Source of the DNA: an uncultured Muribaculaceae bacterium
GTDB lineage: Bacteria; Bacillota_I; Bacilli_A; RF39; UBA660
DNA: 44,360 nucleotides
NCBI GenBank assembly: GCA_964605575.1
Contig: CAZSDG010000002.1
Coordinates: 1 to 44,360, forward strand
Direction of reading: 5' to 3'
Shown here: one piece after another, positions 22,048-41,174 of the stretch
Layout of the letters: each line of letters opens with the position of its first letter
How positions within the stretch are numbered: position 1 is the first letter of the stretch
The notes under the pieces: model-generated
The model's database searches: none
The model's input: the letters and a program-made list of their open reading frames with translations, nothing else
Told to the model about the DNA's origin: nothing
Program-made: the position numbers and the translations under genes

Positions 22048-23406
22048 TTAATTAATTTTGTTTTTAATTTCTTCAATCATTTTTTTCACTTGATTATTTT
22101 TCTTAATATCTTCGGTTATTTTATTACAAGCATGAATTACAGTAGAATGACTTTTACCGCCAAATTCTATTCCGATTTTTGTTGTTGTTTCATCTGTAAT
22201 TATTCTAGATAAATATATAGCTATTTGTCTTGGATAGTTAATATCTGCAGTTCTTTTCTTACTTTTTAAATCTTCAACTGTTATTTCGTAGTAATCAGCA
22301 ACAATTTTTTGAATTTTTGTTATGCTACTACTTAAGTATTCATTACTTTTTAAATGATCTTGTAACGATTCCATTGCAAATTCTAAATTAATATTTCTTT
22401 CGTTCATTGTTGCTGAATAAGCAATTAATCTATTTAATGATCCTTGAAGGTGCCTTATGTCATTATCGCTGTTTTGAGCTATATATTCAATTGCTTCCTC
22501 GTTAATATAATCTCTAATTTCTAAATTTTTGATTTTATCCTTTAATATTTTTAATTTTAAAGTGAAGTCTGGTGGATAGATATCAATCGTTAAACCCCAA
22601 CTAAATCTTGTTTTTAACCTATCTTCTAGAAATTTTAAATCATCAGGAGAACGATCAGAACTAATAATAATTTGCCGATTAAGATTTTTTAAATATTCAA
22701 ATGTATGAAAAAATTCTTGTCTAGTTTTCTCAGCTCCACTAAAAAATTGGATATCATCAATGATTAGGACATCAATACTTCTATATTTATTTTTAAAGAA
22801 ATTAATATAATCAAAGTTATTTTCATTATTAGAACTTCTATTATTAATATCTACAAAATCTTCTCGAAATTGATCACTTGTAACATAAAGAACTTTTAAA
22901 TTTGAGTTTTGAACAATATAATTACCAATTGCATGCATTAAATGAGTTTTACCAAGTCCACTTTTACCGTGAATAAAAAGTGGATTATATATTTTACCAG
23001 GATTTTGTGCTACTGTTAATGCTGATGAATAAGCGAATTTATTAGTATCACCAATCATAAATGTTTCAAAAGTATATTCAGGTTTTAAATTAGTGTTTAT
23101 AGTACTATTTTCTAGATTATTTTTATCATTAATAGGATCTTCATCTTGTTGTTCTTCAAGTTCATCTTGATAAATAAAATTAATTTGATAACTTTTTCCT
23201 GTTTTTTCTAAAAATATTTCTTCAAAGAGTGATTTATAAGTATCTGATAAAATTTTTTTATGTAAAGCCATTTCTACTAATATATCTACATTGTTAATAT
23301 CTATATTGTGTAATTTAATATTTTTAAACCAGGCATTGAAAGAAACTGGAGAGATTTGTTCTCTTAATTCATTTAAAACACTATTCCACAAAGAATCATT
23401 ATTCAT
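22048..23406 (-). CDS. dnaA: Chromosomal replication initiator protein DnaA
   Basis: 452 aa. Walker A GKSGLGKTHL, Walker B LIIDDIQF, and the C-terminal DNA-binding signature GGKSHSTVIHA. Confidence 0.97.
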   Translation of the reverse strand: MNNDSLWNSVLNELREQISPVSFNAWFKNIKLHNIDINNVDILVEMALHKKILSDTYKSLFEEIFLEKTGKSYQINFIYQDELEEQQDEDPINDKNNLENSTINTNLKPEYTFETFMIGDTNKFAYSSALTVAQNPGKIYNPLFIHGKSGLGKTHLMHAIGNYIVQNSNLKVLYVTSDQFREDFVDINNRSSNNENNFDYINFFKNKYRSIDVLIIDDIQFFSGAEKTRQEFFHTFEYLKNLNRQIIISSDRSPDDLKFLEDRLKTRFSWGLTIDIYPPDFTLKLKILKDKIKNLEIRDYINEEAIEYIAQNSDNDIRHLQGSLNRLIAYSATMNERNINLEFAMESLQDHLKSNEYLSSSITKIQKIVADYYEITVEDLKSKKRTADINYPRQIAIYLSRIITDETTTKIGIEFGGKSHSTVIHACNKITEDIKKNNQVKKMIEEIKNKIN

Positions 23407-37327: not shown

Positions 37328-37771
37328 ATGAAAATAGGAATATCAAGTGACCATAGAGGTTATGAAAAAAAACAAAAAATATTGGAGTTATTAAGTAAAA
37401 AGTATGAAATCATTGATTATGGAAATGATATTTTTGATCCAGAAGATGATTACCCAGATTATGCAATAAAAGTTAGCGAGGCTGTTGCAAGTGGCAAGCT
37501 AAACTATGGTATAACAATGTGTGGCAGTGGTATTGGAGTTTCAATAGCTGCGAATAAAGTAAAAGGTATCAGGTGTGCTAAAGTTGATAATGTTGAAGAT
37601 GCAAAATTATCCAAAAAAGATAATAACGCTAATGTAATTGCTTTGAATTCAAATAAAACAGTTGATGAATTAATATCTATAATCGAAGCTTATATCACTA
37701 CTCCATATAATGAAATACCTCGTTATCAAAGAAGAATAAACAAAATTTCAAATTACGAGGAAAACAAATGA
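37328..37771 (+). CDS. rpiB: Ribose-5-phosphate isomerase B
   Basis: MKIGISSDHRGYEKK..., GITMCGSGIGVSIAANK (RpiB/LacAB family). Confidence 0.9.
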   Translation: MKIGISSDHRGYEKKQKILELLSKKYEIIDYGNDIFDPEDDYPDYAIKVSEAVASGKLNYGITMCGSGIGVSIAANKVKGIRCAKVDNVEDAKLSKKDNNANVIALNSNKTVDELISIIEAYITTPYNEIPRYQRRINKISNYEENK

Positions 37772-37974
37772 TAAAAGTAATAATCTATACAGCAAGTATA
37801 TTAATTAGTACATTTGCAATGACGGGGATTAATTTTGATTTAATAATAAAGAAAAAGCATATTTGGGAAGCTAGAATATTAGCAATACTTTTAGCTGTTT
37901 CTTTAGGATATTTGACGGGGTCATTTATAATTGACTTTTTAGAAGCCAGTCAAATCATTAAATATTGTTTATAA
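37768..37974 (+). CDS. Small two-TM membrane protein (DUF1146/YwzB-like)
   Basis: 68 aa with two hydrophobic helices. ATGA overlap with rpiB. The family assignment is from memory of YwzB-like proteins only. Confidence 0.45.
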   Translation: MIKVIIYTASILISTFAMTGINFDLIIKKKHIWEARILAILLAVSLGYLTGSFIIDFLEASQIIKYCL

Positions 37975-38023
37975 CATTTAATCATGCTATGATAACTATA
38001 AGTTAACGTAGCGAGGTGAATAA

Positions 38024-38725
38024 ATGGTTGAATTTATATTAATTGAAGATGATTTATTGATTCATAATACAGTTGAAAAAATCATTGTCAATTTATTATT
38101 TTCAAAAAGCATCGAATTTAATATTCAAACCTTTATTAATTATAATTCTGAACTTCAAAAAGTAATTGAAAGTAGCAGTATGAAAAAAATATATATTATT
38201 GATATACAATTAGCTGGTAAAATTTCCGGAATTTCAATTGCCGAAAAAATTAGAGAAAAAGACTGGGATAGTGAAATAATATTTATTACAAATCATTCTA
38301 AAATGTTTGAAAAAGTTTTTAATAATATATTAAATGTTTTTTCATTCATCGAAAAATTTCACAATTTTGAAGAAAGACTAACAGCCGATATTAAAAGAAT
38401 AATTTCCCATAAAATTGATAATGAAACTTTTAATTTTTCAAAAGGAAAAATAGATTTAAGAATACGTTTTAAAGAAATTATATATATTTTTCGTGAAACA
38501 AGCACCAGAAAAATTCATATAATTACTACAAATAATGAATTTATTATTTCGATGAATATTAAAGACATAATGTTAAAACTTGACGGTAGATTTGCTCAAG
38601 TTCACCGCGCTTGTATTGTTAACAAAGATCGTATAGTAAAATATGATTGGAGAAATAAATATTTTGAAACAGATAATAAAAAAATAGTATACTTGCTGTC
38701 ATCAAAATACAAAAAATCAATATGA
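38024..38725 (+). CDS. agrA: LytTR-family response regulator (AgrA-like)
   Basis: Receiver domain (ILIEDD, YIIDIQL phospho-Asp context, IIFITNHS, FIEK) and a C-terminal LytTR domain (IIYIFRE..., FAQVHRACIVNKDRI). Similar in outline to S. aureus AgrA (YFLDIQL, IIFVTSHS). Confidence 0.85.
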   Translation: MVEFILIEDDLLIHNTVEKIIVNLLFSKSIEFNIQTFINYNSELQKVIESSSMKKIYIIDIQLAGKISGISIAEKIREKDWDSEIIFITNHSKMFEKVFNNILNVFSFIEKFHNFEERLTADIKRIISHKIDNETFNFSKGKIDLRIRFKEIIYIFRETSTRKIHIITTNNEFIISMNIKDIMLKLDGRFAQVHRACIVNKDRIVKYDWRNKYFETDNKKIVYLLSSKYKKSI

Positions 38726-39987
38726 ACTTTAATAGTTTTATCCTATTTTTTACAGTTATTTCATTATCAAGCCTTGTAAATATTTTTTGTATTAAAAAAA
38801 TATCTTCAAAACGAGTAGAATTCAACATAATTAATACTGTAATATTTATTGTAGCAACAATAATAGTTATGTTTAATAATTTACAAAACAATATTCTTTT
38901 ACTTTTACCAATTAATTTTGTAGTAATGCTAATATTAAATCGGTTTATATTCAAAATAGATAAAAATATTATATTTAAATATTTAACTGTATATTTTATT
39001 ATTGGGATAACAATCGATATTATGTTGTCAATATTATTAATAATATTTGGTTTTAACAATATTATAGAATTTAATAATGATAATCTATTTAAGTCCCTTT
39101 ACACCTTAATTCATTCGATATTTGTAATACTATTATTTTATAATAAAAAGACGTATTCAATTATCGATAGCATTGTTGTAAGCATTGAAAAAATTGAAAA
39201 TCAATTTGTTATAATTACTATTTTTGTTTTTATATCTAGTTTACTGATGAAATTTAATGTATCAGAAAAAATTATGATTAAAAAGTATCTATCAATAATA
39301 CTTATATTTACATTTTTATTAATGCTGATTATTAAATTATATAAAAGTATCTATAAAAATAGTTTACTAATTAATAATTTAATAAAGGCGGAAAAAATAA
39401 ATAATGAATATCGCTTAATGAAACACAATATTTTAAACGACTTAATTCATATTAAAACAAGTAAGACAGATGAAATTGTTCAAGAAACAATAAATAAATA
39501 CCTGGAAGAAAAAAACAATAATATAAATCTTGGGATTATTAAAGATGGAATTAACGGAATTATTTACTACAAAATGCCGGAAATTATTGATAATAAAATA
39601 AGTATATATATTAATAATGAACTAGAAGAAAATATAGAAAACCTTATTCCTGCAAGACAATATAAATCTTTTTGTGATATATTTTCTATTCTAATTGATA
39701 ATGCACAAGATGCAGCTTGTTGTAGTGAAAAAAAGAATATATACATAAATATATATAAAAATAATGAAGTATTAAATTTAATGGTTGCAAACTCATTTAA
39801 TAATAAAATTGATTTAGATCAGTTAGAAAATATTAACTATTCTACTAAACTCATTCCCAGTGGATTAGGTCTATTTTATATTAACAAAATAAATGATAAT
39901 AAGTTTAAAATAAATCGAATAATAAAAGAAGATGTATTTATTACTAAGGTATTGTGGAAAATAAATAATGACATTAAAAAAATATAG
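38722..39987 (+). CDS. agrC: AgrC-like (HPK10) membrane sensor histidine kinase
   Basis: About 200-aa polytopic N-terminus, H-box RLMKHNILNDL, N-box ILIDNAQDAA, G-box PSGLGLFYINK. ATGA overlap with the regulator gene. Confidence 0.8.
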   Translation: MNFNSFILFFTVISLSSLVNIFCIKKISSKRVEFNIINTVIFIVATIIVMFNNLQNNILLLLPINFVVMLILNRFIFKIDKNIIFKYLTVYFIIGITIDIMLSILLIIFGFNNIIEFNNDNLFKSLYTLIHSIFVILLFYNKKTYSIIDSIVVSIEKIENQFVIITIFVFISSLLMKFNVSEKIMIKKYLSIILIFTFLLMLIIKLYKSIYKNSLLINNLIKAEKINNEYRLMKHNILNDLIHIKTSKTDEIVQETINKYLEEKNNNINLGIIKDGINGIIYYKMPEIIDNKISIYINNELEENIENLIPARQYKSFCDIFSILIDNAQDAACCSEKKNIYINIYKNNEVLNLMVANSFNNKIDLDQLENINYSTKLIPSGLGLFYINKINDNKFKINRIIKEDVFITKVLWKINNDIKKI

Positions 39988-40020
39988 ACAGTTTGCTTTC
40001 TAACTGTCTACATTTATTTT
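39985..40020. terminator. Bidirectional terminator between convergent agrC and agrD
   Basis: TAGACAGTT (39985..39993), 8-nt loop, AACTGTCTA (40002..40010). A T-rich tract follows on the plus strand. Confidence 0.6.
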
Positions 40021-40047
40021 ATTACTTCAATTAATCTGTTTTTTTCT

Positions 40048-40164
40048 TTATAACAGAGACTTTGGACATTCTAGTTCATCTAAAATAAACCAAAAACAAG
40101 CTGTTCCATTGTTTACTGCAACTGTACTTAGAACAATTAATGTTGAAGCTAATAATTTTTTCAT
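40048..40164 (-). CDS. agrD: AgrD-like autoinducing peptide precursor (38 aa)
   Basis: Not in the ORF track (under 60 aa). Hand translation: MKKLLASTLIVLSTVAVNNGTACFWFILDELECPKSLL. RBS AAAGGAGGAAAAC lies inside the agrB 3' end, and there is an ATGA overlap with the agrB stop. The Cys+4 ring followed by an acidic DELExPK tail parallels S. aureus AgrD (CDFIM-DEVEVPKEL). Confidence 0.85.
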   Translation of the reverse strand: MKKLLASTLIVLSTVAVNNGTACFWFILDELECPKSLL

Positions 40165-40697
40165 GTTTTCCTCCTTTCTTTAATATCAAAATTGAGATAA
40201 TTACGATAAGGTTGTCCAAATATTTTATAAGTAAATGGAGAAATCAAGAACAATTGAAAAGTAGCTGCCCAGAGCATGCTTGTTGAAACATTTTTTGGTA
40301 CAAAATTCAATAAAATGATGTATATAAATAATATAAACAATGTTAAAAATTTACTAAAAATTCTTTTTTTCTTATTAAGCATTGATTTTTTCACGGTGTC
40401 GGCAGGTGCCCAAATAGTATAAAAAGGTAGATAAATTATCAATAATATTAAAAATATATTTGTTGGTAAATCTATTTTAGTTATTAGAAAAGGAATAATA
40501 AGAAATGCTATTAGAGAAAAAAACCAACAATCCCTACTTTTAGACAAATGTATTCCAAAAGAAAAAGTCCGCAATGGGAAATAGCACAACATGAAAATAA
40601 TTGTATTATTAAAGTTATTTAGAAAAAAACTCAACAATAATATTACTAACAGTTTTGTCGTAGTCATAAGTATACCTTTTAACCCATAAATAAACAT
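40161..40697 (-). CDS. agrB: AgrB-like AgrD-processing membrane endopeptidase
   Basis: 178 aa, polytopic. The catalytic His/Cys pair has the S. aureus spacing (FGIHLSKSRDCWF; H50, C57). agrD lies immediately downstream. The start could also be M11 (40667). Confidence 0.8.
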   Translation of the reverse strand: MFIYGLKGILMTTTKLLVILLLSFFLNNFNNTIIFMLCYFPLRTFSFGIHLSKSRDCWFFSLIAFLIIPFLITKIDLPTNIFLILLIIYLPFYTIWAPADTVKKSMLNKKKRIFSKFLTLFILFIYIILLNFVPKNVSTSMLWAATFQLFLISPFTYKIFGQPYRNYLNFDIKERRKT

Positions 40698-40709
40698 TTC
40701 TTTTTCTTC

Positions 40710-40739
40710 TGTTTACAAAGAAATGTTTTTGTTTACAAA
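40710..40739. repeat. Direct repeat TGTTTACAAA x2, 20-bp period, upstream of agrB (candidate LytTR operator)
   Basis: Copies at 40710..40719 and 40730..40739, 13 bp upstream of the first agrB ATG. Confidence 0.35.
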
Positions 40740-40970
40740 ATTATTTATTTTATTAATAATTACTTCCAATACTCTCACCAGTCAAAGCATAGAGTAAAAA
40801 AAGAAGATTATTTAGTTTTAAGATTATAATGGTAATAACTTTGTTTAAAGTAAATAAATTTATATATTTAATATTATTTAGTCATTTTCAGACAAAAAAA
40901 CGACTATAATAGACGTAATTTTAAAAAAATAAATATAATTAAGGAAAATTTAACTAAGATAAGAGGTGAT

Positions 40971-41174
40971 ATGATGTTTGGAATTGTAAGGTGGTTTGAT
41001 CTTGAAAAGGGTTATGGATTTGTTGTTTATAAAGACTTAGAAAATATATTTATTCATTATTCAGATGTTCTTAACTCTCAGTATAAAACACTAATTGAAG
41101 GTCAAAAAGTTTCATTTAAATTAGTTGAGACTTCAAGAGGATTAAGAGCCAAAGAAGTATATATTGTTGATTAA
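40971..41174 (+). CDS. Cold-shock domain protein
   Basis: 67 aa. RNP1-like KGYGFV and RNP2-like IFIHYS. RBS AAGAGGTGA. Confidence 0.8.
   Translation: MMFGIVRWFDLEKGYGFVVYKDLENIFIHYSDVLNSQYKTLIEGQKVSFKLVETSRGLRAKEVYIVD

Follow-up and report, generated by a model that had tools for sequence, protein, structure and literature searches.

Work on the agr quorum-sensing system has been confined almost entirely to pathogens and industrial clostridia, and several departures from the staphylococcal P2-agrBDCA operon have been described. In Clostridium acetobutylicum, agrBD and agrCA are separate operons and the signal is the six-residue macrocycle [CVLVTL] (PMC12312760), the agr2 locus of Clostridioides difficile R20291 follows the order agrA-agrC-agrD-agrB with agrAC as a transcriptional unit of its own (PMC3754575), and the autoinducing peptide (AIP) of R. 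cellulolyticum is the hexapeptide CWFWSY (PMC8251862). In streptococcal blpRH the regulator comes ahead of the kinase (PMC9638458), four residues separate the cysteine from the cleavage-site D-E in staphylococcal AgrDs (AIP table of PMC12312760), and natural agr-defective variants segregate in populations of Staphylococcus aureus (PMC12312760). Here we describe an agr-type locus within a stretch of 44,360 nucleotides, hereafter the window, from an uncultured bacterium of the RF39 lineage (contig CAZSDG010000002.1). The window is a draft contig of a metagenome-assembled genome (0.92 Mb, 72 contigs, 91% complete). The locus is probably an ancestral agr-type module of an uncultured Bacilli family with genomes of about 1 Mb, present here as a probable signal-negative, receptor-intact allele.

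Four open reading frames (ORFs) lie between the end of a DUF1146 gene (37974) and the start of a cold-shock-domain gene, csp (40971). They belong to the same four families as the S. aureus system, namely an AgrB His/Cys peptidase, an AgrD propeptide, an HPK10 kinase with seven transmembrane (TM) segments and a LytTR regulator, but unlike the P2-agrBDCA operon they form two convergent operons with the regulator placed before the kinase. This convergent layout and the regulator-first order had been read from the sequence in an original prediction made by a model, and our ORF map bears out both, together with the coordinates given (Table 1). Both gene pairs are coupled by ATGA overlaps, agrA/agrC on the plus strand and agrB/agrD on the minus strand, and they meet at a hairpin whose proposed role as a shared terminator is upheld by terminator scoring on the two strands and by folding against shuffled sequences (minimum free energies of -12.9 and -17.0 kcal/mol, z of -5.1 and -4.7, equally stable in 0 of 200 shuffles). 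The GC skew of the window reverses at about 23.5 kb; beyond this switch agrBD is the sole real minus-strand unit of at least 100 aa, and for units of that length it is indeed, as predicted, the only one running against replication, on the lagging-strand side of the switch.

The chromosomal order A, C, D, B and the separate agrAC unit are shared with C. difficile R20291 agr2, whereas the separation of agrBD from the kinase/regulator operon and the six-residue ring, here a predicted one, recall C. acetobutylicum. Unlike in these large-genome spore-formers, the module occupies a fixed ori-proximal slot beside csp-hpf-secA in genomes of about 1 Mb. Streptococcal BlpRH/ComDE resemble the locus in the HPK10 N-box LxDNAxxAA and G-box STK..G.GL and, in the case of blpRH, in having the regulator gene 5' of the kinase gene, but their signals are linear double-glycine peptides that pass through ABC transporters instead of being cyclised by AgrB, and their H-box reads FRHDYxN where the window has KH235N236ILN. 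Split operons, the A-C-D-B order, the regulator-first order and six-residue rings are already in print; in the papers searched, we found neither an explicit description of agr operons converging head-on upon one shared terminator nor a paper on agr in uncultured 'Mollicutes'/RF39-type genomes. What is new is a lineage-wide variant, as read from comparative data, that combines convergent operons, an H-N kinase clade, C-x5-DE peptides and a linkage to csp, together with a population-level picture of damage to the signal genes.

Lesions in the Signal Arm

The original prediction credited the window with all four agr functions. The AgrB, AgrD and LytTR families stood up to our profile searches, which were done with Pfam and NCBIfam models at curated cut-offs and with matches listed to E ≤ 1, but the set is not complete: the agrB ORF that had been taken as the gene (40161-40697) is the downstream remainder of a longer one after an in-frame TAA, and its end coordinate, 40697, truncates agrB because the ancestral start lies at 40769. 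With this nonsense codon, the agr system of the window strain is incomplete. Upstream of the ATG assumed as the start, the translation reads ...LEVIINKINNFVNKNISL*TEEKEMFIYGL... and aligns without gaps with the N-termini of all relatives, and the N-terminal segment obtained by reading through the stop is present in 42 of 42 aligned homologues. The 178-aa ORF at 40161-40697 scores 88.8 bits with the AgrB model PF04647 (cut-off 23), the whole-genome Pfam search recovers a read-through match of 103.8 bits at 40245-40754 (model positions 2-184) with the TAA inside it, and the NCBI call for agrB on this contig begins later still, giving 168 aa. The catalytic pair of the peptidase, GIH74LSKSRDC81, is invariant at His74 and Cys81 throughout the 42-sequence alignment, the two residues being seven positions apart as are H77 and C84 in S. 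aureus AgrB. AlphaFold2 models the read-through protein with a mean predicted local distance difference test score (pLDDT) of 91 and a predicted template-modelling score (pTM) of 0.84, as a helix at residues 2-15 (pLDDT 83-86), a short loop that contains codon 19, and a first long TM helix at residues 20-49; a sequence search of the PDB with AgrB found no solved relative.

A database search with the read-through protein returned a full-length AgrB that is 97% identical and carries serine at the position of codon 19. In this line, five conspecific contigs were compared: the window, L043 (run SRR8925715), L046 (SRR8925808), L045 (SRR8925819) and L042 (ERR3345674). Codon 19 is TAA in the first three and encodes serine in the last two. 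The stop arises from a single C-to-A change that goes with five other agrB differences specific to the haplogroup; this haplotype linkage, together with its occurrence in assemblies of different runs, speaks for an allele that truly segregates and against an artefact of assembly. Judged from these sequences, AgrB function has probably been lost or strongly reduced in the window strain.

Some of these contigs also carry a lesion in the second signal gene. The window, L046 and L045 keep ATG as the start codon of agrD (40162-40164); it is ATA in L043, which belongs to the TAA haplogroup, and in L042, of the Ser haplogroup, so that this change has either recurred or been exchanged by recombination; L043 differs from the window at 4 positions in 5425 bases, the agrD start codon among them. 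In the sister species (contig L030), the tyrosine codon of the YGL motif of agrB has turned from TAT into TAG and the agrD start from ATG into ACG, and agrA (235 aa) and agrC (420 aa) are intact. Both genes are likewise intact in all the conspecific contigs compared. Over 5.4 kb, 16 of the 18 fixed differences between the haplogroups fall between agrC and the agrB-csp spacer; those in the agr genes comprise about 10 non-synonymous and 3 synonymous changes, counts too small for a significant ratio of non-synonymous to synonymous rates (dN/dS), in a pattern that would be compatible with relaxed or diversifying selection. Between the two species, AgrC keeps 48% identity (42% in the sensor half and 54% in the cytoplasmic half) and AgrB 56%, the neighbour genes being 79-95% identical; such a high divergence is as expected if these proteins carry the determinants of agr specificity.

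Judging by the families of its components, the module may be pictured as follows. From its own sigma-A-type promoter, agrA-agrC would be transcribed towards agrD-agrB, a separate convergent operon ending at the same hairpin. AgrB, a membrane Cys peptidase acting through His74 and Cys81, would cleave the AgrD tail before D-E-P/L and cyclise the peptide through Cys23; the seven-TM AgrC would sense this peptide, autophosphorylate His235 and pass the phosphate to Asp60 of AgrA, whose LytTR domain would then activate the target promoters. With the signal arm broken and the receptor arm preserved, the window strain most likely would make little or no signal and yet respond to the peptide of its neighbours, as a 'mute listener'. 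Recurrent lesions in the signal genes, intact agrA and agrC, and the deletions seen across the family fit relaxed or socially fluctuating selection during genome reduction. Natural agr-defective variants are also found in S. aureus, with the difference that the lesions there lie in agrC/agrA and here in agrB/agrD.

Table 1. Position of the features of the agr-type locus in the window.
Feature	Position	Strand	Remarks
Predicted sigma-A promoter of agrA-agrC	37965-37993	+	Spacer of 17 nt with an extended TG between TTGTTT and TATGAT; lies within the 3' end of the DUF1146 gene
agrA-like response regulator, 233 aa	38024-38725	+	Receiver domain and complete LytTR domain
agrC-like HPK10 histidine kinase, 421 aa	38722-39987	+	Seven hydrophobic segments; overlaps agrA by ATGA
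Shared bidirectional intrinsic terminator	39985-40010	both	Overlaps the agrC stop codon; terminator score on either strand
agrD propeptide, 38 aa, MKKLLASTLIVLSTVAVNNGTACFWFILDELECPKSLL	40048-40164	-	Overlaps agrB by ATGA
agrB, ancestral 202-codon ORF	40161-40769	-	TTG start 40767-40769; Shine-Dalgarno (SD) sequence GGTGAGAG at 40772-40779; interrupted at codon 19
In-frame TAA nonsense codon of agrB	40713-40715	-	Codon 19; TCA (Ser) in L042 and L045
First in-frame ATG past the TAA	40695-40697	-	Codon 25; possible re-initiation site; weak purine-rich SD; start assumed in the original prediction
Two AGAC-core direct repeats, TTTCAGACAAAA and TAATAGACGTAA	40886-40897, 40907-40918	+	21 bp apart; candidate AgrA boxes
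Predicted csp promoter	40910-40939	+	TAGACG, 18 nt, TATAAT; 10/12 positions in a consensus scan
Cold-shock-domain gene (csp)	40971-41174	+	Divergent from agrBD

The AgrD Propeptide

AgrD passes its family model TIGR04223 marginally (20.2 bits against a cut-off of 19) and is 79% identical to an AgrD of the same genus. As in S. aureus, it shows an amphipathic leader, a core with a cysteine and an acidic tail, DE..P. In 12 of the 12 family AgrDs recovered the spacing is C/S-x5-[DN]E[PEL], with Cys replaced once by Ser and x5 being mostly hydrophobic residues. By homology, this conserved C-x5-DE spacing predicts a ring of six residues, CFWFIL, and not the five-residue CFWFI that a ring of S. aureus size would give. 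The tail reads DEL in the window and DEP in the intact allele of the other haplogroup as well as in 9 of 11 other family AgrDs.

The AgrD of same-genus relatives (L014 627-740, L030 6496-6609) has serine (SFWWIF) where the window has cysteine (CFWFIL), a difference in the core equivalent to a lactone/thiolactone switch within one genus. In one of these relatives (G005, contig L014) both signal genes are intact, with Ser in place of Cys in the peptide core.

A Kinase Clade with an H-N H-Box

The HMM checks proposed with the original prediction found AgrB, AgrD and LytTR above their cut-offs, but on its own the kinase has zero matches to Pfam and NCBIfam models at E ≤ 1, so that its assignment to a family relies on homologues and on a profile. 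Its homologues reach E = 1e-105, and 13 of the 16 that were scanned individually carry PF14501 (HATPase_c_5 type). A profile of 16 kinase sequences has its best PDB matches in S. aureus AgrC (4BXI, E = 1.3e-17, and 6E52, 6.3e-17), and hhalign pairs it with the canonical agrBDCA kinase of a genome of the same class at 96.9% probability. Hydropathy places seven hydrophobic segments between residues 6 and 207, as in a polytopic sensor, and the N-box LIDNAQDAA and the G-box STKLIPSGLGL, picked out by eye, match the published HPK10 motifs (PMC9638458). By these comparisons, the kinase appears to be an AgrC-type HPK10 of a distinct and large clade.

The H-box KH235N236ILNDL departs from the FRHDYxN type: the histidine and the Asn at H+4 are retained, and position H+1 is Asn instead of an acidic residue. 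The original prediction had read this motif correctly, but it is no peculiarity of one gene. H235 and N236 are invariant in the 16-sequence alignment; among the same-slot loci of the family, five (window, L030, L017, L019 and L033) have [KR]HN..N.L and the other 11 HE[YFM]KNQL, and the canonical kinase of the same class reads RHDYLN. Moreover, a HMMER scan of 1.84 billion representatives yielded 738 proteins at E ≤ 1e-30, and the tally of the 132 best full-length ones gave H-N in 118 cases, H-E in 12, and H-D and H-S in one each. With 118 of 132 representatives sharing it, H-N is a conserved character of the clade, neither a sign of decay nor a single-gene oddity. A three-residue deletion in the H-box (H-[DYV]-N to H-N), which one MAFFT run and HMMER had suggested, was rejected because an ungapped alignment retains the Leu at H+6 throughout and, in the subclade of the window, the Asn at H+4; a simple D/E-to-N substitution is the preferred explanation of the aligned sequences. 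In HisKA kinases, the acidic residue after the histidine acts in autophosphorylation, and the H-N clade offers a natural test case for the autophosphorylation mechanism of HPK10 kinases. We found no paper on an H-N H-box in the literature.

The Regulator and Its Promoter

The agrA-like protein is the sole LytTR protein of the genome and provides one of its 8 receiver domains. It matches the receiver model PF00072 (Response_reg) with 32.3 bits, against a cut-off of 30.2, and the LytTR model PF04397 with 46.7 bits over model positions 5-91 of 98, and it has the acidic pocket E8/D9/D10 and a phospho-acceptor, D60, after a hydrophobic strand. With the AgrA equivalog model NF046049 it reaches E = 1.2e-12 but 48 bits, so far below the cut-off of 400 that it does not count as an orthologue of the staphylococcal protein. 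The 49-bp gap in front of agrA and the end of the DUF1146 gene are about 90% conserved with the sister species L030, and since this conserved block contains TTGTTT-17-TATGAT with an extended TG, agrAC probably has a sigma-A-type promoter of its own.

An Ancestral Module at a Fixed Chromosomal Slot

The original prediction regarded the module as accessory and called for a comparison of gene neighbourhoods. When enlarged loci were searched by tblastn with the window proteins, agrA-agrC, opposite-strand agrD-agrB and csp-hpf-secA were found together in at least 12 other genera, with rpiB and rpmE mostly a few kb upstream of the module, and one genome from a second family of the order keeps a partial version. 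The contig of the sister species, L030, is gene-for-gene collinear from fba to secA. Within the family, 16 of 25 genomes encode AgrB; over all relatives the count is 19 of 41. Across genera, AgrA is 23-46% and AgrC 24-34% identical against 45-75% for the flanking genes, and such low identities beside better conserved flanks indicate that the agr locus diverged in place.

The slot also displays several stages of loss. In one genome (G016), agrA and an agrC interrupted by a TAA remain, agrBD being gone and agrC (G016:C1:64912-66126, L033 1416-2633) adjoining csp; another (G024) has an orphan agrA alone before csp (L034 8044-8733). In two genomes of the genus of the window (G001 and G004), hpf follows within 60-85 bp after DUF1146, and G012 and G019 have the slot without agr genes. 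The same-slot module in many genera, together with this series of partial and complete losses, contradicts an accessory insertion: the module is ancestral, its absences are explained by losses, and it looks like an indel only in comparison with same-genus genomes that lost agr plus csp. The GC content falls to 0.20-0.22 across the module from 0.28-0.30 in the flanks; given the inheritance at the same slot and the decay series, this dip is not evidence of recent acquisition. As read from these genomes, an ancestral module handed down vertically is now being eroded. In a further genome (G014), agrA/agrC-like genes and hpf lie on different contigs.

On the rpiB side, the small membrane protein gene of the DUF1146/YwzB family (37768-37974, plus strand) overlaps the rpiB stop codon by ATGA and keeps its position in many relatives. 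Further upstream, an L31-Firmicutes ribosomal-protein leader (RF03156; 37029-37059, plus strand; 35.5 bits, gathering score 33.3) stands immediately 5' of rpmE and accounts for the hairpin found there. It is the only hit in an Rfam scan of 36.5-42.5 kb, in which no RNAIII-like or csp-leader family was found.

Genetic code 4, in which TGA encodes Trp, was considered and rejected, and code 11 holds because TGA clearly terminates agrA and agrB here; that TGA is a stop in this organism also follows from the ATGA overlaps of agrA/agrC and agrB/agrD. Public gene calls on the Logan contigs of the species (L042 1257-1886, L043 922-1677, L045 and L046) read TGA as Trp, which produces false N- and C-terminal extensions (an AgrB of 209/213 aa starting with 'MLW' and an AgrA of 251 aa).

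csp and the Putative Output of the Regulator

In S. aureus, P2 and P3 also pair the signal operon with a divergent gene, which is RNAIII there and a cold-shock-domain protein gene here. The csp gene, the only one in the window genome, adjoins agrB in all 14 loci that extend far enough. It is absent from the whole assembly in the agr-less genomes G001-G004 and G012, which is unusual for Bacillota, and it has gone whenever agr is completely gone at the slot. Inherited and lost together with agr, csp is a candidate first target of the regulator that can be put to the test.

Taken as a whole, the agrB-csp spacer shows little conservation with L030. One of its two AGAC-core repeats, the csp-proximal one, occupies the -35 position of the predicted csp promoter, and the pair is thus positioned for csp, not for agrBD. 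Exact 21-bp AGAC pairs with similar flanks (TTTnAGACAnAA) occur in the spacer of 4 of 13 loci, against a mean of 0.12 in shuffled sequences and with 0 of 500 shuffles reaching 4, the motif having been chosen after inspection. Over the whole genome there are 3 AGAC pairs with a 21-bp period, about as many as with other spacings; the two others lie inside genes, the spacer pair is the only intergenic one, and no AGAC-based regulon can be claimed from this genome-wide search. Two copies of TGTTTACAAA (40710/40730, 20-bp period) were considered as AgrA boxes and rejected: both fall within codons 11-20 of the ancestral agrB, the second copy owes its perfect match solely to the nonsense C-to-A change (with a mismatch in L042), and the repeat is absent from the sister species.

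The genome also encodes a stand-alone Spo0A_C protein (PF08769, 75.7 bits; G000:C7 ~22874-23227, L044 1450-1803) without a receiver domain. Its gene sits between tpiA and a membrane peptidase gene, and none of the genome's 8 receiver domains was seen to belong to a full-length Spo0A.

Alternative Explanations

Some points weigh against a signal-negative, receptor-intact allele. Every sequence used comes from a metagenomic assembly, and the window itself is a draft contig among 72, so that the TAA might be an assembly or sequencing error in an intact agrB. This we consider highly improbable, since the change is a substitution and not a homopolymer indel, the identical base is present in the Logan assemblies of two other runs (L043 and L046), where it is linked to the same five haplogroup-specific agrB differences, and the Ser allele was assembled from runs SRR8925819 and ERR3345674. 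A more serious objection is that the locus could be fully functional, with translation re-initiating at the ATG at 40697, or at a Met ten codons on, and a shortened AgrB processing AgrD. The ATG lies in frame six codons past the TAA, 18 nt from the stop and after a purine-rich stretch; the 178-aa product would retain all the TM helices, the conserved YGL motif and the invariant catalytic His and Cys, and still gives the AgrB match reported above; sequence conservation is low in the missing residues 1-24, and a TAA allele found in three assemblies is not being rapidly purged. Similarly, a little AgrD might still be translated from ATA, given the strong AAAGGAGG SD in front of it. However, 0 of 54 homologues (E ≤ 1e-10) are naturally so short, except for one on a 794-bp contig fragment, the N-terminal helix occurs in all homologues and is modelled confidently by AlphaFold2, and the SD at the ATG is weak in comparison with the good one at the ancestral TTG. 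Moreover, independent lesions hit the same arm, in the agrD start codon and at the YGL Tyr codon of L030 agrB, the latter not being rescuable likewise. We therefore regard a fully functional locus as unlikely, and keep the loss of signal production as the better reading. A different objection concerns autoinduction, which is presumed because the family works in this way: the scans for AgrA boxes gave no convincing ones upstream of agrBD or agrA, and a systematic search of 12 loci for 10-mers spaced by 19-23 bp upstream of agrB and agrA found no shared motif.

As to the origin of the module, a recent accessory island between rpiB/DUF1146 and hpf would account for the GC dip, for the direct succession of DUF1146 and hpf in two same-genus genomes and for the patchy presence of AgrB among relatives, but it is largely refuted, and hardly credible, in view of the identical genes, orientation and slot in at least 12 further genera and in a second family of the order, the deep divergence of AgrA and AgrC, and the intermediate states of decay; nor were mobility genes or flanking repeats found at the locus. 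Vertical descent is thus retained for the module. The identity of the protein that binds the AGAC repeats is, in our opinion, evenly balanced. They could be bound by another regulator, such as the Spo0A_C protein, or be elements of the csp promoter or leader, csp being a mere neighbour of agr: read in reverse complement, the repeat (TGTCT[AC]A) is similar to the 0A box TGTCGAA, true TGTCGAA-like blocks occur in the same spacer of several loci, the genome does encode the 117-aa Spo0A_C-only protein, and the pair, a post hoc motif, was seen in just 4 of 13 loci. On the other side, the exact 21-bp direct-repeat architecture is a hallmark of LytTR binding, the G required in the 0A box is consistently a T in the repeats, and csp is lost together with the complete loss of agr at the slot. 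We advance only tentatively, as a less than even possibility, the combined proposal that csp is a direct output of the agr regulator, in a role like that of RNAIII, and that 'mute but listening' alleles recur in natural populations. Under this proposal, csp transcription may reach the ribosome-hibernation gene hpf by read-through, and the mute alleles would be the agrB nonsense codons and the agrD ATG-to-ATA changes, arisen or exchanged in two haplogroups.

Concluding Remarks

The locus leaves the definition of an agr system unchanged, and its value resides in the variant and in the population picture that it offers. An agr module has been retained at one slot, with a fixed convergent layout, across many genera of bacteria with genomes below 1 Mb. 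The coexistence of intact and broken signal alleles within one species, with the receptor arm intact, gives a sequence-level handle on the dynamics of signal cheating. If the mute alleles indeed recur in nature, this would be a case of social cheating in wild, uncultured bacteria, on the production of the signal and not on the response to it.

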